This document shows, piece after piece, positions 232 to 63,754 of a DNA stretch of 64,000 nt; the first letter of the stretch is position 1; every line of letters starts with the position of its first letter. The notes below the pieces were generated by a model. The model made no database searches and was not told where the DNA came from. It worked only from the letters and a program-made list of their open reading frames with translations. The DNA comes from Pelagomonas calceolata (Eukaryota). The stretch is from the NCBI GenBank assembly GCA_918797485.1, contig CAKKNE010000006.1, positions 3,162,001-3,226,000 of the forward strand, given 5' to 3'. A program made the translations under genes and the position numbers.

Positions 232-255
232 GCTAGTGCCTTACATGCCGCTAGC
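232..255 (-). promoter_or_regulatory. Double-CTAG upstream motif
   Basis: Minus strand gctagcggcatgtaaggcactagc. Confidence 0.6.
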
Positions 256-480
256 TACGCGGGGCCCCGGGGGGTGCCTGGCATCGTAAGGCATCATTGG
301 AGATCATCATTGGTGCGTTCATACACACCAAACGATATATTTCCTGCCGCGACAGCGTCGCAAAGCTCAACCGCTTCGACGCGCGCTCAAGCGACACCCC
401 AGGAACGAGGCTCACGCTAATTACGTCGCGGGGGTCCCCCTAGCCCTCCCGCTCCCCCACGGGCAGCAGCGACCTCAAAT

Positions 481-1251
481 ATGCCGGCTCCAACAAAAGC
501 CTGCATCATATGTGGTGAAAAAGCGTCGCTCCGATGCAGCCGCTGTCGCCGAGGGCCGTTCTGCTCGGCGCCGTGCCAGCGAAGGGACTGGCCCGCGCAC
601 CGGAAGTTGTGCGTCCAAGAGTCCCGCAAACCCGAGGTCGAGGCCAGGGCCGCGCGCAAGCCCAGCCCGATGGCGGACGTCGCGGCGGCGCTGGGGCCCG
701 TGGAGGCCTGCATTAAGAGGAAGGGCGCGGCCGCACCGGAGGATATACAAAGGAGCGACCGGTGCGTGCTGACGCTCACGCCGATGCTCTTCGGGCGCTG
801 TGGGGAGAGGGAGTGTGGCGGGGAGGGGGACGACTACGACCGGCTCCTGGCGTCGCCGCGGTCGCTGCGGAGCGAAGCCGACGCCTTCGCGAAGGCCTGT
901 GGACGGTTCGCGCTGCTGGAGCTGCTGCGGGACCCCGCGGCGGCCTTTTCGACGCTCGCCGGGCGCGACGGCGAGTGCTGCGTCGTGGAAGATTGCCGGG
1001 ACCTGGGCGACGACGTGTTCTTCACGCTGGCGCCCGCGAACGCGCCGCTGGACCGCACGCGGCGCGCCGAAGTCAATAGGGCGGTGCAGCGCGGCGCGGG
1101 CCGGTTGGACGACGTCACGGCGGCGACGGCTCAAAGATGCGGCAAGGGAGACGAGTGGGACCGGGCGTTCCGGGCCTGCGGCTGCGACCCGTCCAAGGTC
1201 GTCATAAGGGTCGACTGCGCGGACCCGGCCGCGACGTTCGAGCCCGAGTAG
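481..1251 (+). CDS. MYND-type zinc finger protein
   Basis: N-terminal CIICG...CSRCRRGPFCSAPCQRRDWPAHRKLC matches the zf-MYND pattern. Confidence 0.85.
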   Translation: MPAPTKACIICGEKASLRCSRCRRGPFCSAPCQRRDWPAHRKLCVQESRKPEVEARAARKPSPMADVAAALGPVEACIKRKGAAAPEDIQRSDRCVLTLTPMLFGRCGERECGGEGDDYDRLLASPRSLRSEADAFAKACGRFALLELLRDPAAAFSTLAGRDGECCVVEDCRDLGDDVFFTLAPANAPLDRTRRAEVNRAVQRGAGRLDDVTAATAQRCGKGDEWDRAFRACGCDPSKVVIRVDCADPAATFEPE

Positions 1252-1264
1252 GAACACACTTATG

Positions 1265-2716
1265 TTAGATTAGAGGATCCCACGCCGCGCGCGCGCCGCA
1301 GTAGACCGGCGCGTCGTTCTGGACGAGGTGCAGGACGTGCGTCAGACATCGGAGGTGCTCCGACGTGTGGTGCGTCACGAAGACGAGCGTGCCGCGGGCC
1401 GCGTAGGCCTCGGCCAGCGCCAGGACGCGGCCCCGCTGGAAGGCGTCGAGGCCCTGCGTGACCTCGTCCAGGATGAGGAGCCGCGGCCGCGCGGCGACGG
1501 CCGCGGCCACGAGCAGCAACTTCTGCTCGCCCTGCGACAGCGCGCGAAAGGGCCGCTCGAGGTCGCGCAGGCCGAGGCCCGCCGCGAAGGGCGCCGCGTC
1601 CTCGGCGCCGAAGAGCGCCAGCATGGCCCGGGCGCTTTGCGCGGACGCGGCGGCCCGCAGGTGCAGTTCCGTCGAGACCCAGGCGACGCTGCGGGTCGTC
1701 CGGACCTCGCCTTCGATGGATCGCGTCGCCGCCGGGCCCCACCGTACGCCGTCGTCGCCCGCGGGCCGCGTCAACAGCGCCGCGAGCGTCGACTTGCCGG
1801 CGCCGTTGCCGCCCGCGACGAGCCAGTGCTCGCCCGGCGCGACGGTCCAGTCGACGCCCCGCAGGATCGTCGTGTCACCGGTCGTGACGCCGAGGCCGCG
1901 CGCCTCGACTAACAAATCGTCTCCATCTAAAGGCGGGCCGAGGTCCCGTATCAGATCGGCGACGGGCGCGACGTCCGCGCGGGCCGTCGCCGCGAGCAGG
2001 CGCGCCTCGAGGTCGTCGTCCGCGGTCCGTGCCTCCGTCCGTGCGCCCTCCTCCGTAATCCAGGTCAGCCGCGTCACCTCGGGCAGAATTTCAGAAGCGC
2101 GGTGCGTGACCTGGAGGAGCTGCGTCCGCGCGGCCTCCTTGGCCGACGGCATGTCTCTGACGAGGATGTCGCCCCAGCCGCGCGACATCTGCGACAGCAA
2201 CTTCGCCAGGGCCGCTCGGGACGGCGCGTCCAGCCCGTCGAAGGCGTTGTCGAGCACGACGAGGTCGGGCCGCGCCGAGAGGGCCCGAGCGAGCAGCACC
2301 TTGCGGATCTCGCCCGTGGACACGGCCTTGACGGGCCTCCAGAGGAGGGGGTGGAGGCCGAACCGTACCGCGAGGTACTTCGACGCTTTGGTCTGCAGCT
2401 TGCCCAGGGCTTCATAGACAGTAACGTCCTCCTTCGCGAGCGCCTCGTGGGCCTCGAAGGAGACGTGGGCCGTCCGGGCCGGCCGGTCGAGCGAACCGCT
2501 TTTGATGTGCGCGTCTCCACACAACGCGCGGCCGACGAGCGACTTGCCGCTGCCGTTGCGGCCGAGCAAGGCGTGGCCGCCGGCGTCCGCGTCGGCGATG
2601 TCGAGGTCGAGCTTTGCGGTGCCGTGTGCGAGTTCAGCTGCTCGCAGGGCGGCTAGGGGTGCGCTGGAGCTGCATCGTGCGGTGCAGCGCACGGCCCGCA
2701 GGAGTGCGACACGCAT
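1265..2716 (-). CDS. ModF-like soluble ABC ATPase with two nucleotide-binding domains
   Basis: Two Walker A motifs (GRNGSGKS, GGNGAGKS), signatures VSTGE/LSQGE, Walker B LVVLDN/LLILDE; no TM segments; Arg-rich transit-peptide-like N-terminus. Confidence 0.8.
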   Translation of the reverse strand: MRVALLRAVRCTARCSSSAPLAALRAAELAHGTAKLDLDIADADAGGHALLGRNGSGKSLVGRALCGDAHIKSGSLDRPARTAHVSFEAHEALAKEDVTVYEALGKLQTKASKYLAVRFGLHPLLWRPVKAVSTGEIRKVLLARALSARPDLVVLDNAFDGLDAPSRAALAKLLSQMSRGWGDILVRDMPSAKEAARTQLLQVTHRASEILPEVTRLTWITEEGARTEARTADDDLEARLLAATARADVAPVADLIRDLGPPLDGDDLLVEARGLGVTTGDTTILRGVDWTVAPGEHWLVAGGNGAGKSTLAALLTRPAGDDGVRWGPAATRSIEGEVRTTRSVAWVSTELHLRAAASAQSARAMLALFGAEDAAPFAAGLGLRDLERPFRALSQGEQKLLLVAAAVAARPRLLILDEVTQGLDAFQRGRVLALAEAYAARGTLVFVTHHTSEHLRCLTHVLHLVQNDAPVYCGARAAWDPLI

Positions 2717-2884
2717 GAATCAGCCAGCACAATACATTTGTGCAGACTCTGCGGCGAGAGCGTGTATCTATTGGTGCTGCAAGTATGCCGTGCTGTTGCT
2801 GATCAGATTACTGTAGTGATGCCGGCAGATACACTCTCTCGCTGCTACCAAAAACGTGCGAGCTTCGCGAGGACGCGACGGTCA

Positions 2885-2908
2885 GCTAGCGTCCAGTAAG
2901 ACACTAGC
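2885..2908 (+). promoter_or_regulatory. Double-CTAG upstream motif
   Basis: gctagcgtccagtaagacactagc between divergent genes. Confidence 0.65.
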
Positions 2909-2964
2909 AATCTCTCCTGGTTTTGCAGACGGCGCTCTCGCAAGTAATCCCAGCACCGCCCGTC

Positions 2965-3171
2965 GGCTGCCCCCGCGTGCGACGTACCACCGAGGAGCAT
3001 ACTAGTTGCACATCACACCGCGCTGCTGCCCGACGCGCCTCGCGGCCAGAACCAAGCTCAATCCTAGGCTGCCCCCGGGCGCTGCAGGCATACCACCGAG
3101 GAGCATACTAGCTGCACATCACACCGTCGCGCTGCTGCCCGACGCGCCTCGCGGCCAGACCCAGCTCAATC
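2965..3171 (+). repeat. Tandem duplication (~105-bp period) in the promoter/5'UTR
   Basis: taccaccgaggagcatactag(t/c)tgcacatcacacc...gctcaatc at 2985-3063 and 3091-3171. Confidence 0.85.
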
Positions 3172-3180
3172 GGCGCCACC

Positions 3181-4470
3181 ATGCCGACGCGCCGCCTCGT
3201 CGCGCTCGCCCTCGCGGCCGGCGCCTCCGCCGGCTGCGACGTGTGCAGCAAAGAGCTCTATGACGGCCGGTGCGGGCCCTTCGAGCGCGAGGCCCGGGGC
3301 AGGTGGGCCGACTGGACGACGCTGGCGCCGGACGTGAGTTGCCTCGAGGACGTGTGCTGCGCGCTGCACGAGGACGACTGCTGCGAGCCGGCCGCGGGCC
3401 CGATCGCCGGCCTCGTGATCGGCGCCGTCGTGCTGTTGGCGTTCGTCGGCGGCGCGTGCCTGCGGCTCTGCGGCCTCGCGGGAGGCAGGGACGCCGAAAG
3501 GTGGAGTTTACGCACGTCTGGCCACTGCTTCAGGAACGGGCCGAACCCGAGCCACGTCGGTTTAGTGGCCTTCGCGTGCGGCGTGGCGTACCTCGTGGCC
3601 CTCATGCCCCTCCGGCACTGGACGAGCTACAAACTCGTCGTGGAGGTGAACCTGGTCGGGCGTCTGGAAAGCCGCGCGAGGTTCGACCTGTGGCACGGGG
3701 CGGTGACGACGAAGAACGACTACCTCGGGGATTCCAAGGACGAGGACGCCATCCTGGCGGACCCCGAGGATTGCAACGACGGGGACCAATTTTGCAAGTC
3801 CCTCGTCGAGGCGAACAACGCCGCGCAGTCCTTGGTCATGGTGGCGCTTGTCCTGGCGTCGGTCGCGTGCCTCGCGATCGCGGGATGGAAATTCTGCTGC
3901 GTCGGCGTCGACGGAGAACCGAACGTCGCCGCCTGCGACAAGAACGCGAACGCATTCGCGGTCGCCTCCGCGCTGCTGGCGGTCAGCGGGGCCGTCGGCG
4001 TCGCGGGCGCGACCAACTACAAGTTTGCGATGAAGGACGCGTTCCTCGACCTCGCCGACGCATCGCGCGAAAGCGGGCCCGTCGGCATAGGCTCCGAACC
4101 CTGCAGAGCTGGCTGCGCCCTGTCCATCGTCGCGGGCGCGTTCGGTATCATCGTCGGCGTGCTCGGCGTGGTCCTGCACGTTTACGGTGTCGTCGTCGAG
4201 GCCAGGCCGGCCGGCGCCGAGAGTCCGGTGGGCCCGATCACCCTGGGCGGCGTGAAGATCGATCTAGCACAAGAGGACGTGTGCTCGCCGCGCCGCGTGG
4301 ACCTCGTGTACGCGCCGCTCGCGGCCTGGTACAACGCGACGGGGCGCGCCGCGCTGCGCGCCAAGCACGGCCCGCTCCCCGCGACCGCCGACGCTTTCTA
4401 CCAGTGGCCCACGCGCAACGCGGTCGTCATGGCGTTCCTCGACGACCAGGGCGTGCCGCCCGCCTTCTAG
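3181..4470 (+). CDS. Multi-pass membrane protein with signal peptide and Cys-rich ectodomain (claudin/tetraspan-like region)
   Basis: Signal peptide MPTRRLVALALAAGASA, Cys-rich segment, about 5 hydrophobic helices; GC3-rich codon usage. Confidence 0.7.
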   Translation: MPTRRLVALALAAGASAGCDVCSKELYDGRCGPFEREARGRWADWTTLAPDVSCLEDVCCALHEDDCCEPAAGPIAGLVIGAVVLLAFVGGACLRLCGLAGGRDAERWSLRTSGHCFRNGPNPSHVGLVAFACGVAYLVALMPLRHWTSYKLVVEVNLVGRLESRARFDLWHGAVTTKNDYLGDSKDEDAILADPEDCNDGDQFCKSLVEANNAAQSLVMVALVLASVACLAIAGWKFCCVGVDGEPNVAACDKNANAFAVASALLAVSGAVGVAGATNYKFAMKDAFLDLADASRESGPVGIGSEPCRAGCALSIVAGAFGIIVGVLGVVLHVYGVVVEARPAGAESPVGPITLGGVKIDLAQEDVCSPRRVDLVYAPLAAWYNATGRAALRAKHGPLPATADAFYQWPTRNAVVMAFLDDQGVPPAF

Positions 4471-22636: not shown

Positions 22637-22661
22637 GCTAGCGGCCGGTAAGACACACTAG
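22637..22661 (+). promoter_or_regulatory. Double-CTAG upstream motif
   Basis: gctagcggccggtaagacacactag between divergent genes. Confidence 0.65.
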
Positions 22662-24461: not shown

Positions 24462-24483
24462 GCTAGCGGAGTAAGACACTAGC
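24462..24483 (+). promoter_or_regulatory. Double-CTAG upstream motif
   Basis: gctagcggagtaagacactagc upstream of DPH3. Confidence 0.65.
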
Positions 24484-28685: not shown

Positions 28686-29045
28686 GGTGGCACGCATCAC
28701 GAACGCAAAGAGCAGAGCGGCAAATGACGAATGCAGCGGCAGACAGAATTATACGCCGTGGCACGTGGTCGCTGGGCTCGTTGGAGAGCTTGTGAGTTTC
28801 TCTAGTGGGTGTGCTACGCTAGCACCTGCCAGGCTCGAGTCGCAAGTTTTGCGCGCACAGCCAGCAGGTTGCATCGCCAGGCGTCGCTGTTGACCGCTGT
28901 GAACCACGCAGCCGTGCTGACCAGCAAGCGTCCGCGCAAAGCTGCGCAAAGCACTGCAAGCGACTGCAGCCTTTGCACTGCGCTGCAACAAGCTGCGCAA
29001 AGCACCGCAAGCGACTTGCAGCCTTGCAGCACTGAGCACTGTGGC

Positions 29046-33494: not shown

Positions 33495-33951
33495 GGTCTG
33501 GGCTGGCTCCGTCTGTTTCCTGTTTTTGTGCTGTTTTGGTGCTGTTTTGGGTGCGGCTTGGACGGGGGCAGCCTCTGCCGCACTGGGCTTCTAAATCTTG
33601 AGCTTGCTTGCGCGCCCGTCCGGCTGGCTGGCACGGGGGGCAGCCCAGATGGCAGCCTGCCGCTGCTTCTGCCCCGCCGGGCCCGGGGATCTTGAGCTTC
33701 GGGCTAGTGTCTTACAGTCCCTAGTCCTAAGCATAGCAGCAGTCTTACAGGCCGCTAGCTTGAGGCCCCGAGACCCGGGAATCGCACGAGATATGGAACA
33801 GAGTAACACTCCCCCAAGGCTCGAGCCCTCCAGAGAACACTAGCGCAGAAAGCGACAAAGCCCGCGAGGCTGTATGACTCGGACAGTACCTAGTATCATG
33901 ATAAAAAATTTAAATGATAACGGCCAAATGCGAATAAAACGACGGCTGTTG

Positions 33952-37434: not shown

Positions 37435-37766
37435 CGCGCCGCCGGCGCTGCTCACGACCCTGCTGCTCACGCCCCTTGCCCCCCAGCTGCTCTCTTCCCA
37501 CGTCCCGTCTCGGCGCGATGTGGGGCCCCTAACATGGATTGTAGTACTGGCAGCCTTGAGCAGTCGACGGGCCAATTCGCAATTCGCAGTTGATGGCTGC
37601 GCGAGCGCCCGAACTAGTCCCATGGACCAAGGTGCACTGAAACCGAGCTAGCGTATATCGACACACTAGTAAATTTAAAGATACGCCTCGATAGCGTCAA
37701 AAGAATGACCCAAATTCAGAATACATCCTAGTCGTTCGCCGAGACCAAAGATTTCAGAGTAGCGGC

Positions 37767-37951: not shown

Positions 37952-39323
37952 GGGCGGGAGAAGAATTCTACTAGACAACTCTCGCGTTTATGTTCGTTTT
38001 CTTCCGTTTGTTAGTGGTAGAGTCTATCTAGCCCGCATCAGCGCCCACTGAGCTATTTGAGATATTCCGTTGGAGCCGCGCGATTCGTCATCTTCGCGCC
38101 CCCAAGTTTTAGCGAAGATGGATTCAGAACCTGGACCTGCGAGTATCAGCGACGCCACCCTCCAGATGGACCATAACGCCGTTGTTCTATTCACGATCGA
38201 CCGACTTGCCCGTTCTCCGCGGACGACGGTGCATACGCGGGGCACTGGAAAGGCCCCAGACCGGTGAGTTATAAAATAAATTTGCGTTTCAGGCGCTTTG
38301 GTGATGGGACGGGCCAGCTAACCGGCTTGATTGTGTACTACATTGCTCCGAGACCCAAAGATGCTCGGCGCGGGTTGTCGGTCTCGCGAGCCCACGATCT
38401 GGCTAGATTTGGCTCCACACCTGGACCTACGACCATCAGCCCGTGTACCATCACCATGGACCATAATGCGATCATTTGTTTCATGACCGACCGACTTGCC
38501 CGAGGTCCAGATCAAGATGTTCACGTCCCGAGCATGGGCAGCCAAAAGTACCCTTCTCGTGGTGTAGATGTCATATACTTGTAGTTGACTATCGGTGGGG
38601 TAGTATGGGGCCCAACGAGGCCGCTATTACGATTCTTGGGGGCCCTCGGGTAATTGACGTTTTTTACGGGAACGGGGCGCCATCGGGTCCAAATTATTTA
38701 CTTTTTGTGGATGTAGATCGGCTCGCGGACTCCCTCTGGGATAGGTCTGGGGTCGGGTAGTCGCCTACGCCGCATGCGCCGGCGCTTGGAGCTCCCCAGA
38801 GAGCTCTGGATCGAGAAGTTGTCGGACTTGTGCTCAAGCCCGACAGCTGGCTGGGGACCTGTACTGATATGTATCTATTGACGGAAGCGCCCGCGCATGC
38901 GCTGTAGGCGATTGCACGTGTATAATACCGACCCTAGGCGGCCTCGGGGACACCTCAGGACCACGAATCGACAGGATTCCACCGACGCGGCCGCCATGGT
39001 GGGATCGTCAATATCGCGAATTAAAAAAAATATTTTTTTTGGCCCCCAGTACGTGTCCCATTGATCCTCTTGGACTATTAGCGAACGGAACGATACTCGA
39101 ACGGCTGCATGTTGTCCTTATAAAACCTAGTGTGTCTCGCCTAGCCTACTTCGGCGCAATGCTGAGCTTGGTCGCGTACAAGTTGCCAGTTTTTTGTCCA
39201 GCGCGACCCAAAGTTGCCGTCTAGCTTGCTGGCAGTGGACCCATAACGTCTACGGTGGTCAAATCCTCGTGCAATTCAAGTTACTCATACCCGCCATCGC
39301 TTTCAGGGCTGCCGCATGCGCCA

Positions 39324-40430: not shown

Positions 40431-40661
40431 GTTCACTAAGTCGATGTTACGGTGCTGATCGTAGCTAGTGGCGTGTACATACTAGCATTGAGCCCCCGGG
40501 GAGGCCACTGCTCTTGCACGCGCGTCACCTAGCTCGCATCAATAGCGGGCTCCAAAAAACGCACGCTGATATTTTCACAGCGCTGTGTGGTCGCGTTCTT
40601 GTCCAGCCACGACGCTACGCAGAGGAGTTCTCCAAAAGGCTCAAGCAGTCGAGAGCATAAT

Positions 40662-44231: not shown

Positions 44232-44264
44232 GCCAGTAATGTGTAAGACTTATACCCCCGTGGA

Positions 44265-45708: not shown

Positions 45709-45732
45709 GCTAGCGGCCGGTAAGACACTAGC
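45709..45732 (+). promoter_or_regulatory. Double-CTAG upstream motif
   Basis: gctagcggccggtaagacactagc between divergent genes. Confidence 0.65.
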
Positions 45733-48711: not shown

Positions 48712-48905
48712 AGCGCATCGCGTTCTTTTTGCGTGGGCAGTAGCCCAAACCGCTTCTTGCACGCGAGGCGCTGCGCGCTGAACTTGTCGTCCGGCGAGAA
48801 GCGCGCGGGGTGCGCGCTGAGGGTGGGTTGCTCTTCCTCGCCGTGGGACTTTTTGAGGGTGTAGACGCGCTCGCCCTTCTCGTTGAGGTAGTACATGAGG
48901 TGCAT
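48708..48905 (-). CDS. NOP10: H/ACA snoRNP subunit NOP10
   Basis: [19 protein letters not shown]...[14 protein letters not shown]...[10 protein letters not shown]. Confidence 0.96.
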
Positions 48906-49314
48906 GGTTGTCGGGGGAGCTGCGGCGCTCGTCAGGCGAACCTGTGATGAGTTAGGCTGGCGCTGCGGCGAGTGTCGATTTTGAGTGGAGGGCAAGGAGC
49001 TAGCGGCTGTGAGGCACTAGGCAAGGCAAAACAGCAGGAGGGAGGGCGTTTCCAATTCCCGAGACGCGTCTCGTCCCCGCCGGAAGGATCGGCGCGCATT
49101 TGGATCCAAAATCAGCGGCTGTCACTTTACCAAAAGCCAAGTGCTTATCACTTCCTGTTGCTGCCGGTTGAAGCTGCGTGCCCGCCTAGCAGCCAGGAGC
49201 AGGCGCGGCGGAAAGCCGTAACGACGCGCGCTGCAGCGCGCTTGTGTGTAACCGTTCTCCGGATTCCCCGCTGCTCCTGATTTTCCCAATCTTAGTGACT
49301 AGCGCTGCTGCGCC

Positions 49315-52993: not shown

Positions 52994-53180
52994 TCCTAGC
53001 GCGGACCGTCGGCTCCGGTTCCGTCGAGTGTGTATGAAAACTGAGCTGGAGTTGATATAATGTCCCATTTGGACGGGAGATGGCGGCGTCAATCGCTGGT
53101 GTACTTTGGCAAGGTATAAGACTCATCAGCGAATGTCGCAGCGGGCGGTGTTCCGGGAGGCAATGAGGGTATCTTCCCGG
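52994..53180 (-). repeat. Dispersed repeat copy B
   Basis: Inverted copy of 37767-37951. Confidence 0.88.
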
Positions 53181-54122
53181 AGGCGTAGATGCAAATCTGA
53201 AGATCTGCAGTCATTTACTTATCGCAGTACTCGATGATTTCAAGTTCTCGAAATAATTGCACCTGCGCGGACGTACCCTTCTGATTCGGAAGCTCGGCCG
53301 GTCGGATGCGACGAACGATGTCAGAGACGGCTCCTCGCACACCAAAAATCGCGTCGGAGTCAATGATTTCGTACTGAACTGCCGGCGCTGCTCCGCGAGC
53401 CGCGAGCTGGCCTGGAGTGAGCCCGAGTTTCCGGCGCGGCGCGAGCGGTACCTGGGCCTCTCAGGCGCAGCTGCGCCGTCCGGGCAGGTCGCCGAGGCTC
53501 GTCATAGAGTCAACTGGGCGTGTTGGTCTGGTCTGCAGCGGCTCCGGCCGTCTGCACCGCGCTGGCGCCGTGGATGGCCACCGCCCAGATCGTTCTGCGC
53601 TCTGCGATTTTTTTGATTCGCAAAGTGAAATTACGCCCCCCGACCGGGTCCGCGGCGCGCCCGCGCAGCAGGAGGGCTCGGGGGCCTTAGGGGGACGGGT
53701 CCTAGCGGGTTTCTACTTTCTGGGGACGCCTGATACCCGTCACAAGGCCGACGCCGGCGCGGACGGGCGGCCCGGCCTCTGCGCCCGGCGGGCGAGTCCG
53801 CGGCGCGGGCGCGGCGCGGGCGCGGCGCGGGAGGCCTCCTGAGACTTGGGAGAGAGATTTCTACGGAGTTACTAGTCGCTAGAGGCCCATTGCCCACCAG
53901 CTTCGGAATTCGACGTTCGGGTTTTTCGCCCTTTTGCCGGGTTCTGGCGAGCCCCATATCAATACCGAACGTTCTAGGACATCATGGGACGGCTCCTGGC
54001 GGGTTCCTACTTTCTGGGGACGCCTGACACCCGTCACGAGGCGGCCGCGGGCCCGAACGGTAGACGACGCTAAATGTACCTTTACCAAAGAAAGAAAGAG
54101 CACGCTTCTTAATATTCACAAG

Positions 54123-55145
54123 TCACCCGTAGATGTCGTCGTCGTCGTCGGCGCCGCCGCCGTCGCCGTCGAGGTGCGCCCAGGGATTCTCCGCGGGCGG
54201 CGGCGGCCGCGCGGGGTTCGGCCGCGGCGGCGCGACGCCGCCGCGGAGCACGTCGAACATGTCCGGTACGCCGCCTTGACCGCCCATGAGTTGGGCCATC
54301 AGCTGCGGGTCGAAGGGCATGGGCCCGGGCAGCGGCAGGTCCGGCACCGGTTGTGGTTGCGGCGCCGCCCAGGGGTTCGGCAGCGGCGCGTCCGGGTCCG
54401 CATTCACAGAAGGCGCACTCGCACCGCCGCTCGACACGGCCATGCCCTCGAAGCCCTCCATGAGCGGTTCCTGGACCTCGGAGTACATCCTCCTTAAGGC
54501 ATTAAACCCTTCTGGGTGGTTTTCTAATTGAGATAAAGCCAGATCCTGGTGGCGCATGGCTTCTCTAGCTCGTGCTGGATTCCTGGCGACCTCGACGGCC
54601 TCCCTGAGCAAGTTGGGATCCTGCAAGGCATGCCGCAGCTGCGGATTCGCGTCCATTGCCCTCCTGAGTTGGGGATTGGCGTTGACCATCTGTCTGAGTA
54701 AATTCGGGTCATCTAACAAACTTCTAGTGAACGGGCTATCGAGGATCCTCGCGGTGAGCTCGGGGTCGCTCATCAGACGTCTCTGTAACGATGCCGGGTC
54801 ACTTGGTAATTGCATGCCGTGCAAACCACCTGCTAATAGACCATTCGCGGCCAACTGCGGTTGTTGCGGAGGCGCTTGCGGCTGTCGCGGCGGCGCCCTC
54901 AGTAAGTGTATGGTACACTGGTCGGTGACGTCGTACTCCGTTAAGAGGTCACCATCTTGTAAGGCCCTACCTTTATAGATGAGGCGCTGCTCCGCCGCCG
55001 GCACGTCCGCCGGCGTCTCACATTTTTCTTTGAACTCGAGTACTGACGCGGCCCTCGACACTACGAGCTGGAAATGCTTGCCCGTCGACGTCTTCACGAC
55101 GAGGGTCATGTCGACGCCCGGGGTTGTGGCGGTCATCGTTGCCAT
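54123..55145 (-). CDS. Ubiquilin/DSK2-like protein (UBL + STI1 repeats) lacking the UBA domain
   Basis: UBL: EQRLIYKGRALQD...CTIHL; STI1: NPQLR, ALSQLENHPEGFNALRRMY, PLPNPW; ends DDDDIYG. Confidence 0.88.
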   Translation of the reverse strand: MATMTATTPGVDMTLVVKTSTGKHFQLVVSRAASVLEFKEKCETPADVPAAEQRLIYKGRALQDGDLLTEYDVTDQCTIHLLRAPPRQPQAPPQQPQLAANGLLAGGLHGMQLPSDPASLQRRLMSDPELTARILDSPFTRSLLDDPNLLRQMVNANPQLRRAMDANPQLRHALQDPNLLREAVEVARNPARAREAMRHQDLALSQLENHPEGFNALRRMYSEVQEPLMEGFEGMAVSSGGASAPSVNADPDAPLPNPWAAPQPQPVPDLPLPGPMPFDPQLMAQLMGGQGGVPDMFDVLRGGVAPPRPNPARPPPPAENPWAHLDGDGGGADDDDDIYG

Positions 55146-55394
55146 CGTCTTTACGTCTGCGGCGACGGCGTGGGGTGCTTTTTGTTTGGAGGTCTCTGAG
55201 AGCTGATGGGTTTCAGAGAGACCGAGGGCCGTTGCGCGGCTCGCGGTCGACACGAGGCGCTGGCGGGTTCGCCCAGGCAAGCGGGAGAGAGCTCGCCTGA
55301 ACCGGTAGCGCCGGCGTTGGCTGCGTTTTTGGGCAGGAGCTGGAGCCCAGATTATTTTCTAGTGTGTTACTTCTGTTAGCTAAGTTTACCCTCA

Positions 55395-56261
55395 TTACGC
55401 CGTCGGAGACGACGGAGCGCGCCCGAGAGACCCTCCACCGAAATCGCGCCATCGCGAGGAGCGCCTCCGGAAAATCCGACACACAACAAATGCGGCGACG
55501 CCCACCGCGGCGCCCGTCAGATGTGCGCCGTGGCCGATATTATCCTGAGCGTCGATGAGGCGCCACTCGTGCACGAAATAGAAGCACGAACTCACGACGT
55601 GCAGCACCGCGTTGGCGTCGCACCGCCTTCCGAGAAGCAGCGCCTCGGCGACGACGCAGGTGTCGATGGCCACGAACGCTGACACTCCGGCGGAGGCGCC
55701 TATGGAGCGAATATTTTCGTTCACTTTTTTCGCCACGGCGTGCACGGCCGTCCTCCGCGCCTCGTCGAACGCCTTGGAGATTTTGTCGCCCAGGCGCTCA
55801 CCCACCACCTCCGAGGCACCCGAGAGGTTGAAGACCCGTCGGACCCGCTCGCCGATGCCCCACCGCTCGACGATGCGCTCGAGGCGCTGCGTGCCAAAGT
55901 CGAAGGGGTCCAGGGCCGCCGCGATGCCCGCGGCGACGTACGTCACCATCGCTCCGTTGACGCCTAAGGTGTCCGTTGCCGCCGGCCCGGCGACGAGGAT
56001 CGACTGCAGGTTGGACAGCGCGTGCGCCTGGTTCCCGTGCAAGAGCATGTAACTCGCCGTCGTCCACCAGCGGCCCTCGCGCAACGCCTGCCGGCTGAAC
56101 GTGAAGTGCTTTTCCAGCGTATTCATAGAGAGCGGCAGCGCTATTGACAAACGCGGCTCCCTTCCAGAGGCAGCTGCGAGTGTCGGTATTAGCGCGTGCA
56201 GCGCCAATAAAGGCGAGAAGTCGCCGGCAAACGCCACGACGCGTTCGAACGAGCGGTTCAT
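55395..56261 (-). CDS. Rhomboid-family intramembrane serine protease
   Basis: GRWWT, HGNQAHALSN, GASAG (catalytic Ser), HGAHLTGAAVG (catalytic His); ATG overlaps the LYR gene stop. Confidence 0.87.
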   Translation of the reverse strand: MNRSFERVVAFAGDFSPLLALHALIPTLAAASGREPRLSIALPLSMNTLEKHFTFSRQALREGRWWTTASYMLLHGNQAHALSNLQSILVAGPAATDTLGVNGAMVTYVAAGIAAALDPFDFGTQRLERIVERWGIGERVRRVFNLSGASEVVGERLGDKISKAFDEARRTAVHAVAKKVNENIRSIGASAGVSAFVAIDTCVVAEALLLGRRCDANAVLHVVSSCFYFVHEWRLIDAQDNIGHGAHLTGAAVGVAAFVVCRIFRRRSSRWRDFGGGSLGRAPSSPTA

Positions 56262-56488
56262 CACTTCTTGGACTTGTTCAGGCTCTTCATCACGAGGTAG
56301 TTCGACAGCGCGCGGACCGCGTCCGCTTTCAGCTTCGAGATCTCGGCCGCGTCCGTCACGCCAATATGTTTGCGGAAGCCGTCCTTGACGACTTGCTTGA
56401 GCGCTCGGCCCTTCGCCGAGTCGCCTCCAATATGATGCGCCGTGCGCAGGCAGTCGCGGAAGAGTTGTAGTGTTGTGCGCTCGAGCAT
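56261..56488 (-). CDS. LYR-motif (Complex1_LYR) small mitochondrial protein
   Basis: TLQLFRDCLR...VKDGFRKH...DAVRALSNY; 75 aa. Confidence 0.87.
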   Translation of the reverse strand: MLERTTLQLFRDCLRTAHHIGGDSAKGRALKQVVKDGFRKHIGVTDAAEISKLKADAVRALSNYLVMKSLNKSKK

Positions 56489-56859
56489 CGGCCGCTGCTG
56501 GGCCTGCACCGCGTCTAGACTACGAACAAATGGCAGCAAAGCTTTGCTCGACAGCGTGGCTGCTGGAGAGTAACTCCAAGGCCTTCGAAGCCTGCCGCAC
56601 CACGCGTTTAGCAGCGTTGGCAACTTGCGAGAGCTTCCTAGTGTGTCTAACCATTAGCTAATCACAGGCTCGGCTTTGTTGCGGCTGCTCAGGCACGCGC
56701 GAGTCGCGCAGGACTCGTTCGGGCGATCTCGGTACTCGCCACAGCGCCTGCTCACGCGCGCGGCTCATAACTGTCGCCAGATTTGGCGTACAGGTGCGGT
56801 GCTCTCTGAGAGCACTGTTCAGCAGCCTCAAAATCCGTGCGCGCGGCCTCGCGACAGCC

Positions 56860-57716
56860 ATGGCCGCCATGGCTGGCGGTAGCACTAAGCGCGCTATCGT
56901 CGAGATCATCAGTGATGTTGTGTGACCCTTCTGCTGGGTCGGCAAGCGCAACCTCGAGACTGCGCTCCGATCCACGGGCGTCCAGGCGCGCGTCCACTGG
57001 AAGGCCTTCCAGCTGAACCCCGGCGCCTCGGACACGCCCTCCAATAAACTCGAGATGTACATGTCCAAGTTCGGTTTCGAAGCGGTGTCCGTGATCGGTC
57101 GTCGAGAGCACTGCTGGCCCCCGGCACGCCATCGCGGCGATGGCGGGCGAGAGCACCCATCGCTACGCAGGCATGGGCCGCGACCAGGTGCTGCGCATGA
57201 CGGCGGGCATGCGCCAGAACTTTGCGAATGTGGGCCTCCCCTACGCGTTCACGGATCAAGGTCTTGTGGCGAACACGATGGACGCGCACCGCGTGCTCGC
57301 GTGGTGTGGTTCGCCGGAAGCGCAGGACAAGGCCGTCCGTAGCTCGGTGTCCTGCGAATTGGACGTCGAGAATGCGGCCGCGACGATGGCGTGGAGGTCA
57401 CCAAATTCTCCGCAATCGTTCTCAGGATAACCAAACGCAGGTCGAGGTCATATTCAACGGGTACTTCGCCGAGGAGCGCGCCCCGAACGACCGCGACCTG
57501 CTCATTGAGGCGTGCGTCGCCGCGGGCAAGTCCGAAGCGGATGCAAGAGCTTTCTTGGACGACAAGTCGGCCATGCGCGACCAGGTCCAGCGGGAATTAA
57601 GTGAAGCGCGGGGCGTCCGCGGCGTGCCGCACTTCGTCATCCGCCAGCCGGGGCGCGACCCCGTGCAGATCAGCGGCGCCCAGCCGCCGGAGATCTTCGA
57701 GCGCGCTCTGCAGTGA
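56860..57716 (+). CDS. DsbA/FrnE-family thioredoxin-fold selenoprotein; exons 56860-57073, 57171-57334, 57441-57716; Sec at TGA 56923-56925
   Basis: EIISDVV-TGA-PFCWVGKR aligns to the family CPxC site; FQLNP, NTMDAHR, VRGVPHF, ISGAQP; two GT-AG introns keep frame (218 codons). Confidence 0.9.
57074..57170 (+). other. GT-AG intron 1 of the DsbA gene
   Basis: Removal gives SKFGMGRDQV; contains acgccatcgcggcg motif. Confidence 0.8.
57335..57440 (+). other. GT-AG intron 2 of the DsbA gene
   Basis: Removal gives QDKAVEVIFNGYF; contains the intron motif in antisense (cgcgacgatggcgt). Confidence 0.8.
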
Positions 57717-57726
57717 AGCGCTACAT

Positions 57727-57788
57727 CGGTGCTGTGTATGACGGGCCACTACTACCCGTGGTGATGGCCCCGACAAGAAACGGCGCCG
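57727..57788 (+). promoter_or_regulatory. SECIS-like element in the 3'UTR of the DsbA selenoprotein gene
   Basis: Helix I cggtgctgt/acggcgccg (9 bp incl. G-U), ATGA at 57738-57741 with GA at 57772-57773, helix II gggcca-ctac / gtgg-tggccc. Confidence 0.8.
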
Positions 57789-57861
57789 CCGGCGCGTGGA
57801 TATAATTGTGTCTTGCTTTAGAGCGGCGCGACGACGGGGTCGGTGTCACAACATCACAAAC

Positions 57862-58977
57862 TTACGGAGGCTTGGGGGCGTTCGGCGGCGGCGGCGGCGG
57901 GGGACTGTCAGGACCACTAGCGGCGGCTCGCACCTCTCTCTCAACATCAACTAACGCCGTCATCGTCCGCCACCACAGCTCCCTTTGTTCTTCGTCGTCA
58001 AAACAAAGGTCGAGGGACCGGTCCTGCGTGACCAGTGAGAGATATTTGCCCTCATCTTTAACTTTTCCCGTCCTCCTTAAAACGTCGGTGTCCCTACCAC
58101 GAGAAATGCGTATTACCGAAGCCAGCTCGACGCCTTGTATTGAGGTACGTTTGCCCTTCCAGGTCAGGTACATGTACAGATACATGTCTCCTTGCACCAG
58201 TGATAGCTGGAAGGTTTTTTTGGAGGGCCGGCCCGATCTAAAAGGGTGCTTCGTCACACTGACACCGGTAGTTGTTAAAGCCTCAAACAATGAATACTCC
58301 TTCTCCGCGAGCGTCGCTCGTATGGTATACATGGTCGCCGCCATCGCGGTGTACGTCGTCCCGGGCGAACATAGGATCCTTTCGGCCGCCTTCCGCCGGT
58401 CCTCATTTTCGGTATCTTGTACAATGTGATGATGTTTATAGTCGGGCAGCACGGCCTCGCGCCACCAGAAGGGACCCCTTAGTCTGTATAACTCATCAGC
58501 AAAGGTGTGGTGGTACCAGGCCTGCAAGTCTTCCCTCGCATTGGCCCTGGCATGGAGGGTCCACTGCTCCTTGTCCATGGCTTGCCGCTCCCGATTCGCG
58601 TCTCGCACATATGAAACCCACCGGTCTCTCGCTGTCGTTAATCTGGACATGTTCCGTCGTCTCACGAGATTCTGCACTTTGTAACTCCCGTGCTCCACTC
58701 TTCTATCGCGAGCAAAGACGCGCAGGCGTTCTCGTACCGCGTCGACCTCGCGCTCCAGCGCTCTTATGTGAGCCACGGGGTCCAGCTCCTCGTTGAGGTG
58801 CGCGAGGCCATCCTTTTGACTTTGAGGGTTCGCGGCGGCGGCGTTGAGCTCGTTCTCATCGAGGGGCGATGGCGGCGCCGGCGGGGCCGCGTCGCTGGTT
58901 TGCTTCTTTGCCGAGCTTGGGGGCTTCTTTTCGGACGCCGTCGCCATCGGTGCGTCGTTTTTGGACGGCTTTGCCAT
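57862..58977 (-). CDS. Coiled-coil + C-terminal PH-domain protein
   Basis: GVSVTKH...LTW...IRISRG...YLSLVTQDRSLDLCFDDEEQRELW (PLC-type PH pattern). Confidence 0.78.
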   Translation of the reverse strand: MAKPSKNDAPMATASEKKPPSSAKKQTSDAAPPAPPSPLDENELNAAAANPQSQKDGLAHLNEELDPVAHIRALEREVDAVRERLRVFARDRRVEHGSYKVQNLVRRRNMSRLTTARDRWVSYVRDANRERQAMDKEQWTLHARANAREDLQAWYHHTFADELYRLRGPFWWREAVLPDYKHHHIVQDTENEDRRKAAERILCSPGTTYTAMAATMYTIRATLAEKEYSLFEALTTTGVSVTKHPFRSGRPSKKTFQLSLVQGDMYLYMYLTWKGKRTSIQGVELASVIRISRGRDTDVLRRTGKVKDEGKYLSLVTQDRSLDLCFDDEEQRELWWRTMTALVDVEREVRAAASGPDSPPPPPPPNAPKPP

Positions 58978-59212
58978 CGGTGCGCGTCGCGCCGCGCCGG
59001 CGTGCGCAAATGGGGTGCCCTTGGCCCCCCAGGCTTGCAAAATGAACTGCGAGCCAGAAGCGCTCGCTGGCGTTCTGGGCTGCGTCAGCTGTGATGGCTG
59101 GCGCCTCGCCTTGCCCGTGGGCAGCCCTTGCACGCGCTTTGCGGCGGCTGGCGGCCCAAAAAAAGGTGAATGCTAGTGTCTCTACGGCCGCTAGCCTCTG
59201 GCGGCGGCCTAG

Positions 59213-60048
59213 CATGGGGAGTAAAGTTGGGGTGGGTACCAGGCTATGTTTACCCCGCAGACTTAAGTCGCGTTTTGGCCTTTTTGGGGTGGTTGCCAGA
59301 GCGACCCAGCGGGTGCACCGCCACCAGCACTGCCCCGGGGGCCGAGGCACGCCCCCATGAGGGCCTCGCATGCCAAGTTTCAGCGGCAACGGTGCTCGGG
59401 AAGGGCAGCCACGGTCGGCGGTTCCATTCGACGATCGACGCCCCGCGGCCCCCTCTCGGTCGATTTGTAACTGAGCGCGACACAGGGGCTCAGGACAGCA
59501 TTTGCGTGAACTTTGCTATGAGAAAGTTACAAATCCACCGAGTAGATTTTCATCCATTCGTTCCCGAACACGGTCGCGAACGGGGGCACTACGGCTCATT
59601 TCCCGGCGGTTTTCGCTGGAGCCAAAGACGGACGCCGGTCGGTAGGGTATGAGAGGCTCCCTCGAGGCGCGACGACGCTCAACGGCTGCGTCAAGGCCAT
59701 ATGCACACCGTCGCCGCGATATAGTGTTTTTTTTAAGTTTATTTTTTTTACCCGTCTCGGGGCTCTAAAGCGGGAGGATTGAGCTCTGAAAGGGAGCCCT
59801 CGCGTTGGCGCTTCGATTTTCGCGCATCGACTAAAATTGCTAAACGTTTTGCCGTCGTGCTCGGCCAATTTTGCGCCTGCGCGCAAAAGAAAAGCTGCCG
59901 AGGGCCGCTTGGGTGCCCGTACGCCCACGCGCACGCGCACTTCCGCTGCCATGGGCGTGGGCAGCCGCACGGCCCCAAAAACAAAACCGCGACTTAAGTC
60001 GGCACGGCCGGTACCGTATGGTACCCACCCCATACTTTACTCCCCATG
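59213..60048. mobile_element. MITE-like non-autonomous element with long imperfect TIRs
   Basis: catggggagtaaagt-tggggtgggtacca...gacttaagtcgcg at 59213-59290 is inverted at 59971-60048; CTAG on both flanks; non-coding interior. Confidence 0.75.
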
Positions 60049-60285
60049 GGCCTAGGTCGCACGGCCCTATTGCTGCCTCTGTTAAGCCTTTGAGCAGCGC
60101 AAGACGTCGTTACGACTACCAATAAAAGCGCAAGCCCGCAAGTCCTGCAAGTAACGTCGCGCAATACGTACAGTAAGCTCATCACTGCACGACGCCATCG
60201 CAGCTGTCGTGCTACGGGCGGCGCGGCGACAAATCCCTCGTCGTAAGCAAGCTCGCTCGCTGCACGCCGCCGCAGCGCAGCACAG

Positions 60286-61380
60286 ATGTCCGGCCCCCGC
60301 TCGGAACCGGCCTTCGGCGTCGGCGCGTGCGCCTCCGTGCAACAAAGGTACGAAAGGCGAGACCGCGTCGGCGAGGGCACGTACGGCGTCATCTATCGGG
60401 CCTGGGACCGGCAACTACAGAGAGTTGTGGCCCTCAAAAGATTACTGCCCCACAACGAGGCGCAGGACGGCTTTCCCTTGACGTCCCTGCGGGAGGTCTC
60501 GACTTTACGACTGTTGCGGGGCCACGCGAACGTCGTTACCTTCCTGGACGTCGCTGTTGGTGCTAGAAGGGACGCGGTGTTTTTATCACTGGAGTTTGCG
60601 GAGCATGGAGATTTAGGCTCGTTGCTCGACGACCGAGCCATACGGAAGGGGCGGAAGAGGTTGTTTGACATTTCTCAAACCAAATGTTTAACAAGGCAAT
60701 TGCTCCTAGCATTGCGGCACTGCCACGAGCGCTACGTGTGCCACCGGGACGTAAAAGTGGCCAATCTACTGTACACGGCGGAGGGGCGCTTGAAGCTCTG
60801 CGACTTCGGCCTGGCGCGCATCATACCTTCCATTGATAGAGCGTTAACTCAAAATGTCGTGACGCTGTGGTATCGCGCGCCCGAGGTGTTGCTGCGATCG
60901 CCGTCCTATGCCCACCCCATCGACTGCTGGGCGGCGGGCTGCGTCATCGCCGAGATCTTTCGGGACGGGCGGCCTTTAGCGCCTGGTAGCACTCCGCAAC
61001 AGCAGTGGACGAAAATATTGGACGCGATCGGCGCGCCTTCGTCCGACGTGTGGCCCGGGTGTACCGAGCTTCCTGGTTTCGACGGTTCTGTGGCGTCTCT
61101 ACCTCTACCAGTAGGTAGCTTCGCGAGGGCGTCGAAACTCAATGTTTTGGTACCGGACGCGTCGTCCCAGGCGCTGGACTTGTTGTCCGGGCTGCTGTGC
61201 TACGACCCTAGGAGGCGGGACACGGCGTCGGAAGCACTAGCGTCGGCGTGGTTCGACGAGGCGCCGCGCAGTGCGCCGCTCCACGGCATGCCGACGTTTA
61301 ACATCGAGGAGACGACCGGCCGGAAGCGCGCGCCTCCTTCCAAAGCTCCCGAGGCGTCCGCCAAAAGGCGGCGGGCCTAA
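60286..61380 (+). CDS. Cyclin-dependent kinase, CDK10/CDK11 (PITSLRE-like) group
   Basis: GEGTYGVIY, VALK, FPLTSLRE, HRDVKVANLL, DFGLAR, VVTLWYRAPE. Confidence 0.93.
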   Translation: MSGPRSEPAFGVGACASVQQRYERRDRVGEGTYGVIYRAWDRQLQRVVALKRLLPHNEAQDGFPLTSLREVSTLRLLRGHANVVTFLDVAVGARRDAVFLSLEFAEHGDLGSLLDDRAIRKGRKRLFDISQTKCLTRQLLLALRHCHERYVCHRDVKVANLLYTAEGRLKLCDFGLARIIPSIDRALTQNVVTLWYRAPEVLLRSPSYAHPIDCWAAGCVIAEIFRDGRPLAPGSTPQQQWTKILDAIGAPSSDVWPGCTELPGFDGSVASLPLPVGSFARASKLNVLVPDASSQALDLLSGLLCYDPRRRDTASEALASAWFDEAPRSAPLHGMPTFNIEETTGRKRAPPSKAPEASAKRRRA

Positions 61381-61647
61381 GTTCGTGTTGTTGTTGTATC
61401 CTGTCGCGGCGAGGGCGTCGGCGACAGGCTCAGGCTCAGGCTAGTTACGTCGCAGGGTTCCCCTCCCCTCCCGCTCCCCCCGGGCCCACCCGTCTGGCTG
61501 GACTAGGGAGTCGATGTTACGGTGCTAGTACTAGTGGGCGGAGCCCCTGGGGGGCTAGACTAGGACGGATTGGCTGAGGCTGAGGCTAGTTACGTCGCAG
61601 GGTTCCCCGTACCCCGATTGGGCCCTAGTGACTTACAGCAGCTAGCA

Positions 61648-62366
61648 AGCCCCAGCGGCCTGGCTAGTGGGTTCGACAGCCCTGAGGAACACCCGCACTC
61701 AGTTTTTTTAGGGTTTTTAGCCCGTAGCTCGACGCGCGGGCAACCGCGTGCAACAAACTCACTCACAAAGAAAGGCCATAATAGCCTATCGACACGCGGC
61801 AAAAGACGCGGCAGCGATTGGGCTGCGTCTCGCAGAGAAAACGGACAAAAACCATGAAAAATGACACTCGACAGCCTTTGGCTGCCCCGTATCGCGCCGA
61901 TCGGGCCACCGCAGCGTCGGGTATCGTAGTACGTATAGCCTTCGACGATCTGAGACAAAAAGCAGCGGCAGCGGCCCATGGGATGTCGGCCTATGTGTGG
62001 TCCGCATTCTCGACGTGAACGCGCGTCGGGCTGAAAACGCCACCAATGAAGGCGAGATTTGGCTCGGGCCTTCCCAGCCACCGCGTCGGGCATCTCAGAC
62101 GGTCCCAGGGGATTCTAGCCCCCCGGACGCCCCAAACGAGCGTATCGGGGCAGCCTAGAGGGAATACAACGATTTTTGTCAATATTGGGCGGCTGCCGGC
62201 GCTTTTTGCGCAAGGCGGCCTTAAATAAGCTTTTTGGTCGATAGACACAAAAAGCGCCGGCTGCCAACACCCTCAGACTGCCGAATCGGCCAAAATTGGC
62301 CTCTCCAAAACCCGAAAAGCCGTGCGGGTTGGGGCTGTCGAACCTACTAGCCAGGCCGGCGGGGCT
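61648..62366. mobile_element. Second MITE-like element
   Basis: ggcctggctagtgggttcgacagccc...acccgcac at 61648-61718 is inverted at 62305-62366. Confidence 0.7.
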
Positions 62367-62565
62367 CGATTTGGGATTCGGGTCCACAGGGTCTCTCGGC
62401 GGCCTATCTACTCGGACAAAGGACCCGAAGACGCGAGGAGGAAGCGACCAGAGACCCGGAGGCCACCGGCAGCCCAACTCCTTCACCAGAAGACCGGGGG
62501 CAGCTCTCCCACCCAAGCACAAGCTGTGCTAAGGACCAGGACTAGCCCCCCCCGTCGCAAGCAAA

Positions 62566-63036
62566 ATGTCCAGCTTCGCCCTGCCGCGGCGCGCGACGTT
62601 GACAAGAAGGCCGCTCGTCGCCGCCGTCGCGGCCGCCGCCCTGTGCCTCGCGCTCGTCGCCGTCGCCGCGACCCACGACGAGGCGAGCGTAGCAAAGCGA
62701 CCGGCCCTCGCGCGGCAGCAGTCTGGACCGTTCGGCGACGTTTCTCGGACAATCTGGGCCTCGGACAAGTACCGCGGAGATCTGGGGCGGTCCCTCTTCC
62801 TCACTATCTTCGGACCCGGAGTGATAATAGCGGTCCTCGTCGGGGCGCGGTGCCGGGACCCGCCCCGGCGGCGGCGGAAGAACGTGCCCGTCGCGCACGC
62901 GAGATACGACGGCGAGGCCGAGGCGGTCGTCGCCGATGCGAGTGATGACGACGAGCTTGATTTATTGCCGGCGGCGCGGCCCGTCCACCGGAACCCCTTC
63001 GGTTCGCCGGGGCGACCACAATCCCGCGAGGTGTAA
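62566..63036 (+). CDS. Small membrane protein of unknown function
   Basis: 156-aa ORF with two hydrophobic segments, convergent with the next gene. Confidence 0.55.
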   Translation: MSSFALPRRATLTRRPLVAAVAAAALCLALVAVAATHDEASVAKRPALARQQSGPFGDVSRTIWASDKYRGDLGRSLFLTIFGPGVIIAVLVGARCRDPPRRRRKNVPVAHARYDGEAEAVVADASDDDELDLLPAARPVHRNPFGSPGRPQSREV

Positions 63037-63048
63037 CCCTACTTGTGT

Positions 63049-63541
63049 TTAGATCGCGAGCGCGCTGCCCGCCTTGGTGGCGGTGGAGATGAAATACTCC
63101 CGCGAGAACGTCGACGCCGCGAAGGCGTCGCTCGCGCCGGGCGCGACGCCTACCGCCGTGACGCTCGCCAGGCTCTCGACGGGCGCGTTTGTTTTTATGT
63201 GGATGACGTTGTAGTCGCTCTTCGCGCCGTCGATGAGTGCGATTTCCACCGAAGGCAGCGTGCCGTGCTCGTAGAAGACCACTGCCGCGTCGAAGGACTT
63301 CGCTAATTTCACGTATTGACAGATGCCCGTGTAGAAGCGCTTGATCCGCTCGCCCGTACCTCCCGACATTTCTCTTATGAGTTCGCTGCGTCCGCCGTTG
63401 GATTTGTACTTGTATGCTGGCACGGTCTTCCGAGGCTCGAAAAACGCGAACTCGTGCGCCGGCGACCGGCGTTTCACTCCAATGCAGGAAGAGGGTCCCT
63501 TGAGAAGCTGCACTAAACGTCAGATAACAACCTTTTGCCAT
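63049..63541 (-). pseudogene. IMP2 (immune mapped protein 2)-like gene with an apparent frameshift near 63451-63456
   Basis: MAKGCYLTF...LFLHWSETPVAGA in one frame continues as FAFFEPRKTVPAYKYKSNGGRSEL in another; family assignment from memory only. Confidence 0.5.
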
Positions 63542-63731
63542 GTCTGGTCCGTTTACAAGCGCTAGAGTGGTCAATAAATCACTGGTTGTGAATTGTCGAT
63601 TTTTGACGCGTGTTCCGCCGTGCCGGCTGATTTTCCGCCGATCTTTGGATGTCCCAGGTTCGCCTGGTTCCGCTTATGCCGCCAAGCAACGCCCGCTCGT
63701 CAAGCTTATAGGTCGGCAAAGCAAAGCGAGT

Positions 63732-63754
63732 GCTAGCGGTGGTAAGACACTAGC
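63732..63754 (+). promoter_or_regulatory. Double-CTAG upstream motif
   Basis: gctagcggtggtaagacactagc upstream of the 63541 ATG and of a + strand ATG at 63963. Confidence 0.65.

Follow-up and report, generated by a model that had tools for sequence, protein, structure and literature searches.

The window analysed here, a 64,000-nucleotide stretch of the Pelagomonas calceolata genome (contig CAKKNE010000006.1, positions 3,162,001 to 3,226,000), is gene-dense, eukaryotic and rich in G+C (65.7%), and carries between its genes repeated copies of a long element built around two CTAG boxes, which is a real, apparently undescribed and probably general promoter element of pelagophytes. The host genome, as described in its preprint, consists of six contigs totalling 32.4 Mb with 63% G+C and 16,667 predicted genes (10.1101/2021.10.25.465678). 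The ubiquilin encoded in the window has its closest named homologs in Aureococcus anophagefferens (59%) and Chrysophaeum taylorii (52%), and environmental proteins reach 90-94%. The genes found beside the element have unrelated functions.

Sequence and architecture of the double-CTAG element

An earlier note on this DNA had listed 16 pairs of CTAG boxes and proposed that they mark promoters. CTAG is indeed present at all 16 first-box coordinates on the + strand, and a second box lies 10-16 nt beyond the first at every site, as CTAG or, at 55359 and 56638, as TTAG. A single CTAG is not enriched in the window (126 observed versus 111 expected); pairs with starts 14-20 nt apart number 15 within the 18.7 kb that were not called as coding, versus 3.1 expected, a count that none of 20,000 simulations of random placement reached.

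Scanning of metagenome contigs with an 18-base pattern yielded at least 122 stretches, from which 121 loci (L numbers below) were kept; L069 was discarded as a duplicate of L070, and 125 seed sites remain among the matches listed. A two-block profile trained on these loci only was then applied to the window at a threshold of 15 bits, where it identified 17 sites (Table 1), compared with a mean of 0.3 and a maximum of 2 in 100 runs of a Markov null. None of the 17 falls within the 45.3 kb of called coding sequence, so that the claim that the sites lie outside genes holds with an independent profile. The profile recovers 15 of the 16 originally listed sites, the exception being 39127 (10.6 bits), and adds two that were absent from that list, 33737 and 53861. 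A first refinement of the profile drifted to A-rich noise and was discarded.

The metagenome sites define a 29-bp consensus, AG-CTAGCG-GCCT-GTAAGACACTAG-CAAGC, in which the columns free of the search pattern (AG before, GCCT in the spacer and CAAGC after) carry 0.5-1.1 bits; information drops to background more than 2 bases upstream and more than 6 bases downstream. Oriented window sites share CTAG-CGGCN(N)-GTAAGACA-CTAG, and the non-seed sites of the loci have spacers of 12-15 nt. The unit of about 29 bp thus combines imperfect inverted ends with a middle and a tail that are asymmetric; the stretch of 14 bases separating the CTAGs is not self-inverted. Both boxes of the earlier description are present, but they are only part of a longer, asymmetric element; similarly, the suggestion of a dimeric factor site agrees with the imperfect inverted repeat formed by the ends but not with the middle and one tail, which are asymmetric yet conserved. 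No clear CG periodicity was seen around the sites. A likeness to RFX X-boxes and splice sites was partial and unsupported, and was set aside.

Table 1. Double-CTAG cores and associated elements; positions are those of the window unless a locus is named.
Feature	Position	Strand	Remarks
Motif core, CTAG to CTAG	233..254	-	32.9 bits; 227 nt before start 481
Motif core	2886..2907	+	37.7 bits; divergent gap 2716-3181
Motif core	22638..22661	+	26.7 bits; 16-nt spacer; divergent; - strand RNA 5' pile-up 22617 (21 nt)
Motif core	24463..24482	+	30.5 bits; tandem; + strand RNA 5' pile-ups 24511-24533 (29-51 nt)
Degenerate core	28802..28822	-	19.8 bits; divergent
Motif core	33704..33724	-	26.7 bits; tandem
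Partial second copy	33737..33757	-	15.9 bits; one CTAG lost; newly added
Core	37648..37669	+	21.2 bits; left edge of repeat-rich 1.5-kb stretch
Decayed core	39127..39144	-	10.6 bits; 10-nt spacer; + strand RNA 5' pile-up 39182 (38 nt); flank homologous to L008 site
Degenerate core	40465..40485	.	16.3 bits; orientation ambiguous; tandem
Motif core	45710..45731	+	33.6 bits; divergent; same site in orthologous L126
Motif core	49000..49020	+	26.4 bits; divergent; - strand RNA 5' pile-ups 48962-48978 (22-38 nt), 48972 in four of four runs
Weak core	53861..53882	-	17.2 bits; inside 4-kb repeat-rich stretch 50136-54123; newly added
Core with TTAG	55359..55379	-	23.7 bits; tandem; - strand RNA 5' pile-up 55315 (44 nt)
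Core with TTAG	56638..56657	-	19.8 bits; divergent
Motif core	59173..59194	-	28.3 bits; divergent; 836-bp inverted-repeat element inserted 18 nt to right
Motif core	61625..61645	-	28.3 bits; 719-bp inverted-repeat element from 2 nt to right
Motif core	63733..63753	+	38.6 bits; divergent; + strand RNA 5' pile-ups 63776-63788 (23-35 nt)
MITE-like insertion beside site 59173	59213..60048	.	terminal inverted repeats; CATG ends; same 7 bases both sides
MITE-like insertion, site 61625 to 62387 pile-up	61648..62366	.	35-nt terminal repeats with weak outward-facing motif look-alike (5.8-6.3 bits)
Upstream repeat, ~35 nt	L016:755-790; L028:4130-4170; L038:1-30; L070:3535-3570; L098:320-370
MITE, miniature inverted-repeat transposable element.

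Placement at genes, RNA 5' ends and retention in relatives

Exclusion from coding sequence extends to the loci, where called coding segments make up 187 of 289 kb and contain none of the 125 seed and none of the 23 non-seed sites. Among intergenic regions of the window and loci that were not chosen by the motif, a site is present in 16 of the 33 divergent regions, in 10 of the 41 tandem ones and in 1 of the 57 convergent ones. By hand annotation of the window, the figures are 8 of 12 divergent, 6 of 8 tandem and 0 of 11 short convergent gaps, the sole occupied convergent gap being a 4-kb repeat-rich stretch; the seed-free gaps of the loci give 8 of 21, 4 of 33 (a tandem class that includes introns and mis-split genes) and 0 of 45. 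As convergent gaps are short, the depletion was tested per base and persisted (P = 0.003 for the short convergent gaps, P = 0.001 with the 4-kb repeat stretch included); the 56 short convergent gaps, 5.7 kb in all, hold no site. Among the 55 seed sites with a called gene on each side, the nearest-gene classes were 29 divergent, 22 tandem and 4 convergent; given how much shorter convergent gaps are, no weight was put on these figures. The statement that the motif often marks bidirectional promoters holds for the 8 occupied divergent regions of the window, but tandem regions carry it too, and the comparison of gene starts with convergent regions, which the earlier note had named as a possible refutation, left the promoter reading standing.

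Within divergent gaps the sites are placed centrally: in the 24 divergent gaps of the loci with one site, it lies at 0.16-0.78 of the gap (Kolmogorov-Smirnov P = 8e-4 versus uniform). The distance from site to start has a median of 196 nt in the loci (n = 77), and the 20 start codons tabulated by hand in the window lie 95-295 nt away (median 200), in agreement with the roughly 90-300 bp proposed at the outset; the start behind 56638 on the - strand, a later addition outside the 20, is about 150 nt away. The orientation of the motif in tandem gaps was the same in 17 cases and opposite in 8. Start-to-start distances are 340-600 nt in 11 of the 12 divergent window pairs, which suggests a stereotyped promoter size.

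Stranded poly(A) RNA-seq reads of one sample were examined over 44200-64000 (four runs) and 22000-41500 (two runs). Depth over known genes places the first mate antisense to the RNA, and the listed ends are therefore RNA 5' ends. The 23 positions listed (from the best 40 of 71 and the best 19 of 25 table rows) form 14 clusters, and 6 of these 14, or 6 of the 12 that are non-coding, lie 21-51 nt outward of a motif core, or some 30-60 nt from its centre (Table 1), three in the orientation of the motif and three against it. For a zone of 15-55 nt outward of the core, which was picked post hoc, the six clusters contrast with a non-coding background of 4.4% (P = 6e-6); given only a start somewhere between core and ATG, the narrowness of the range has P = 8e-5.

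Three small conserved open reading frames (ORFs), encoding a CSL zinc finger, Nop10 and a LYR protein, each lie just behind a motif site, and the stop codon of each overlaps the start of the next large ORF (24736-24951/24948 on the + strand, 48708-48905/48711 and 56261-56488/56261 on the - strand). RNA depth, in coarse bins, continues across the small and large ORFs. These pairs are candidate two-ORF mRNAs with stop-start coupling.

The metagenome loci derive from more than one genome type: the coding DNA of L016 and L040 is 82-87% identical, and L028 matches the window at 94% identity. The element is kept in L016 and L040 beside a right flank that cannot be aligned, is kept amid gapped flanks in L015 and L105, and occurs at the same place before a homologous gene, inverted and with unrelated flanks, in L037 and L075. 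The strict pattern has no match in the viral contigs and 10 matches in 596 Gb of prokaryotic genomes, versus about 50 by a rough chance estimate; the absence of above-chance matches in these two collections is consistent with the lineage specificity that had been claimed. A looser pattern gave 118 matches in viral contigs, 2 of them with CG after the first box, which we read as chance. Five contigs of prokaryotic metagenome-assembled genomes (L123, L125, L126, L127 and L131) carry the full algal motif; as L126 aligns to the window, we take them to be algal DNA binned with prokaryotes.

Interpretation and competing explanations

We consider it probable that the 29-bp element is bound by a single abundant general promoter factor, specific to this lineage, that would open DNA in both directions. 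The suggestion of a lineage-specific general promoter element gains favour from the exclusion from coding sequence, the per-base depletion in convergent gaps and the central position in divergent ones, and likewise from the nearby RNA 5' ends in both orientations and the retention in diverged orthologous promoters. On such a model, one abundant sequence-specific protein would bind the element through linked DNA-binding modules reading the two CTAG-centred ends and the asymmetric middle, and such linkage would explain why spacers of 12-16 nt are tolerated. The bound factor may keep a short stretch of DNA open, clearing nucleosomes much as yeast Abf1, Reb1 and Rap1 do, and RNA polymerase II would then start to the left, to the right or on both sides, wherever a gene lies. 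The element itself would fix the start zone at about 30-55 nt from its own centre, with neither a TATA box nor a visible initiator, and in tandem gaps might also act as a putative barrier between genes.

Several observations weigh against this interpretation, in addition to the post hoc choice of the start zone and the partial tables from which the 5' positions were taken. The positions are RNA-seq fragment ends rather than cap sites, and all four runs stem from one sample. Ten of the 16 sites in RNA-covered stretches have no listed 5' pile-up and none has pile-ups on both sides. Eight listed clusters are not near any strong site: two are within genes, 38454 and 52008 are in repeat-rich DNA, 59281/59294 and 59432/59446 are within an insertion, 36382 heads a divergent gap that has no site even at 3 bits, and 62387, on the + strand and the strongest of all, is 742 nt from the nearest strong site (61625). 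This last distance shrinks to 23 nt once the 719-bp insertion is subtracted, the pile-up lying 21 nt beyond the right end of the 61648-62366 element. Four of the 12 divergent window gaps carry no site, and the element is thus not universal; three seed-bearing gaps of the loci (L028, L041 and L073) were called convergent. Gene-based counts are weakened by the origin of the gene calls, made with a Markov model of our own and by hand. A higher density of A4/T4 runs at 5-30 nt from the loci sites than at 80-130 nt speaks for the interpretation, but this excess is absent at the window sites (3 and 4 of 32). Finally, the orthologous pairs were chosen via the motif, which inflates apparent conservation, so that they document retention and not a rate; and L126, aligning to window positions 45604-45945 at 89%, is too close to inform conservation.

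Some sites are associated with repeats, and transposon seeding followed by promoter co-option, as for the m1m2 MITEs of Caenorhabditis elegans, is a tentative possibility that concerns only the origin of the element and is compatible with a general promoter factor binding it today. Homology to a non-seed site of L008 with the same spacing covers site 39127 together with about 130 nt of flanking sequence (score 101, shuffle maximum 59), reads from other repeat copies reach 37664, inside site 37648, and an element common to L028 and L115 carries a motif variant. Two short G+C-rich repeat families, neither with an Rfam match, recur within 10-90 nt of the motif; with few exceptions they flank its CAAGC side and keep a single relative orientation (window 408-464 and 61427-61615; L007, L072, L062, L066, L116, L038 and L110). 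A repeat of about 35 nt, a candidate co-factor site or transposon remnant, is found 0-50 nt upstream of the motif in five loci, mostly between a stop codon and the motif, and the terminal repeats of the 61648-62366 element contain a weak motif look-alike. Sites 37648, 39127 and 53861, as well as those of L028, L041 and L065, lie in repeat-rich gaps. On the other side, comparison of the 60-nt flanks of 142 sites (about 9,500 pairs) found only 7 upstream and 5 downstream pairs above the shuffle maximum, of which two are ortholog pairs and three exceed it only slightly; the large majority of sites have unique flanks without a match to a transposon consensus. The earlier note had proposed identity with a transposon end or footprint as a refutation; no target-site duplication survived correction for multiple testing at any of 480 boundary settings (lowest P 0.004), and the inner 14 bases are not inverted ends. 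The MITE-like elements 2 and 18 nt from sites are, by inference, what open DNA would attract, and we read the repeat association as insertion into open DNA with occasional capture, although a minority of sites may have a genuine link to repeats.

The MITE-like element 59213-60048, presumably P-element-like, is transcribed or else matched by reads of other copies. The repeat-rich, gene-free stretches 37670-39100 and 50136-54123 have an inverted copy of 189 nt (88%) in common and attract strand-specific RNA reads, many of which come from other copies. A repeat of 70-74% identity near several loci was rejected as a transposon, since its translation is that of a gene family; this multi-copy RING-like/TPR family (70-74% DNA identity) occurs in seven loci (L032, L071, L001, L004, L025, L054 and L010). 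Window positions 30441-36300 hold two tandem paralogs encoding a CHAT protease with a STAND-like NTPase, one of them with an added Macro domain.

A bolder proposal, which we regard as unlikely, is that in Pelagomonas-type algae TATA/initiator logic has given way to a single long master element with a flexible spacer, spread by transposons. Its one binder would determine where polymerase II starts to the left and right at about half of all promoters, and its open flanks would receive new transposons. If so, the promoter code of a whole genome could be read from sequence in ocean metagenomes.

It is unlikely that the element is instead a core promoter element read by a diverged basal complex (a TATA substitute, or a PSE-like site for a SNAPc-like complex) that places polymerase II directly. 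Core elements usually set the direction of transcription; here, starts run three with and three against the motif, and one ortholog pair is inverted. The offset spreads over about 25 nt, more than is usual between TATA and start, though RNA-seq ends blur it. The 21-51 nt separating 5' ends from the core is nevertheless the zone of basal factors, TATAWA is rare near sites (0-3 per 112-122 sequence windows) and TATA words show no peak, no initiator-like k-mer peaks 8-60 nt outward of them, and oomycetes, too, are described as lacking TATA boxes (PMC3599244).

A boundary role, as replication origin, insulator or termination roadblock that ends up in promoter gaps for want of other non-coding DNA of any size, is more doubtful still. 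The occupied tandem window gaps, where the site is often 40-150 nt behind a stop codon, would suit it, and yeast general regulatory factors are described as blocking polymerase II and Okazaki synthesis (PMC5052057). Yet the short convergent gaps, where two transcripts end, are without a site, one site per 3.8 kb is dense for origins, and the offset of the 5' ends is narrow. That the element is today mainly a passive transposon relic is very unlikely in view of the few similar flanks, the lack of copies in coding sequence and the tight tie to gene starts. Scarcely credible is a DNA hairpin or cruciform, or a part of a tRNA-derived or small-RNA gene, acting without a dedicated protein: the ends are able to form a stem of 5-6 bp and one of six folded sites is better than shuffles (z -3.5), but the other five are not, one forms no stem, the unpaired middle is conserved, and we found an A-box in 0 of 125 sites, no enrichment of the B-box (0-3 per scanned window), no Rfam match in the window and 15 loci, and no tRNA in the window.

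Significance and comparison with known systems

Pelagophytes are abundant open-ocean algae for which we found no promoter element described. If the density in the window (17 per 64 kb) held, a 32-Mb genome would contain several thousand sites, compared with the 16,667 predicted genes, an estimate from one window, the loci suggesting a lower rate. The element would be a sequence handle for the annotation of promoters and starts in the lineage and in metagenomes, would supply a minimal two-way promoter for genetic tools, and would serve as bait for a general promoter factor, the first to come from an ochrophyte alga. Promoter opening in very compact, GC-rich genomes and the birth of such elements from transposons also become testable.

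Nucleosome phasing in Aureococcus was reportedly shown by Huff and Zilberman in 2014. We found no description of the element in the literature searched, a search that left outside it figure logos, subscription journals, and the journal version and preprint supplements of the genome paper; among the matches listed, the 12-base core was absent on one strand and its reverse complement occurred in one yeast paper. The main text of the genome preprint contains neither 'motif' nor 'promoter' (10.1101/2021.10.25.465678), and in the text available 'CTAG' does not occur in PMC3520976 and occurs in PMC11267843 only within a heat-shock-factor site.

By sequence, the element matches none of the yeast, ZNF143 or m1m2 systems; it shares other properties with each of these and with oomycete elements. 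The INR+FPR, DPEP and CCAAT-box motifs of oomycetes are also lineage-specific, TATA-less and stramenopile, as far as the texts consulted describe them (PMC3599244, PMC3520976); INR+FPR spans the start, is directional and is restricted to oomycetes, whereas here the RNA ends fall beyond the borders of the element, to either side. The m1m2 pairs of Caenorhabditis (CERP2/CELE2 MITEs, HIM-17), according to the preprint, have a spacing of 12-16 bp, occur in a third of a germline promoter class, match the MITE consensus and exist in thousands of copies outside promoters (10.1101/2022.01.21.477252). Both systems are paired, lineage-specific and similarly spaced, but the pelagophyte element has mostly unique flanks, a unicellular host and unrelated genes beside it.

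ZNF143 sites SBS1 and SBS2 (with THAP11), of 18 and 25 bp, are reported to prefer a position 70 bp upstream of starts, to occur in 17% of human bidirectional promoters and to have a proposed transposon origin (PMC3627581). They resemble the pelagophyte element in being long, composite, close to starts and enriched in bidirectional promoters; by eye, the SBS cores ACTACAN/TTCCCA given there are absent from the pelagophyte consensus, CTAG-N-CTAG. The pelagophyte element is also closer to RNA ends and is found in a higher proportion of divergent gaps (16 of 33).

Sites of the yeast general regulatory factors Abf1, Reb1, Rap1 and Cbf1 likewise place one orientation-tolerant motif at a large share of promoters, those of unrelated genes, and the Abf1 site is bipartite. 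Yeast sites have other sequences and are short and fixed, unlike the pelagophyte element, which spans about 29 bp and tolerates spacers of 12-16 nt, and their factors are fungal, whereas the host here is a stramenopile. The yeast repertoire is itself described as species-specific and subject to turnover (PMC2897762). Two features of general regulatory factor sites are seen here as well, the element standing at many unrelated promoters, outside coding DNA, and, in the one sample, within a zone 21-51 nt from RNA-seq 5' ends in either orientation.

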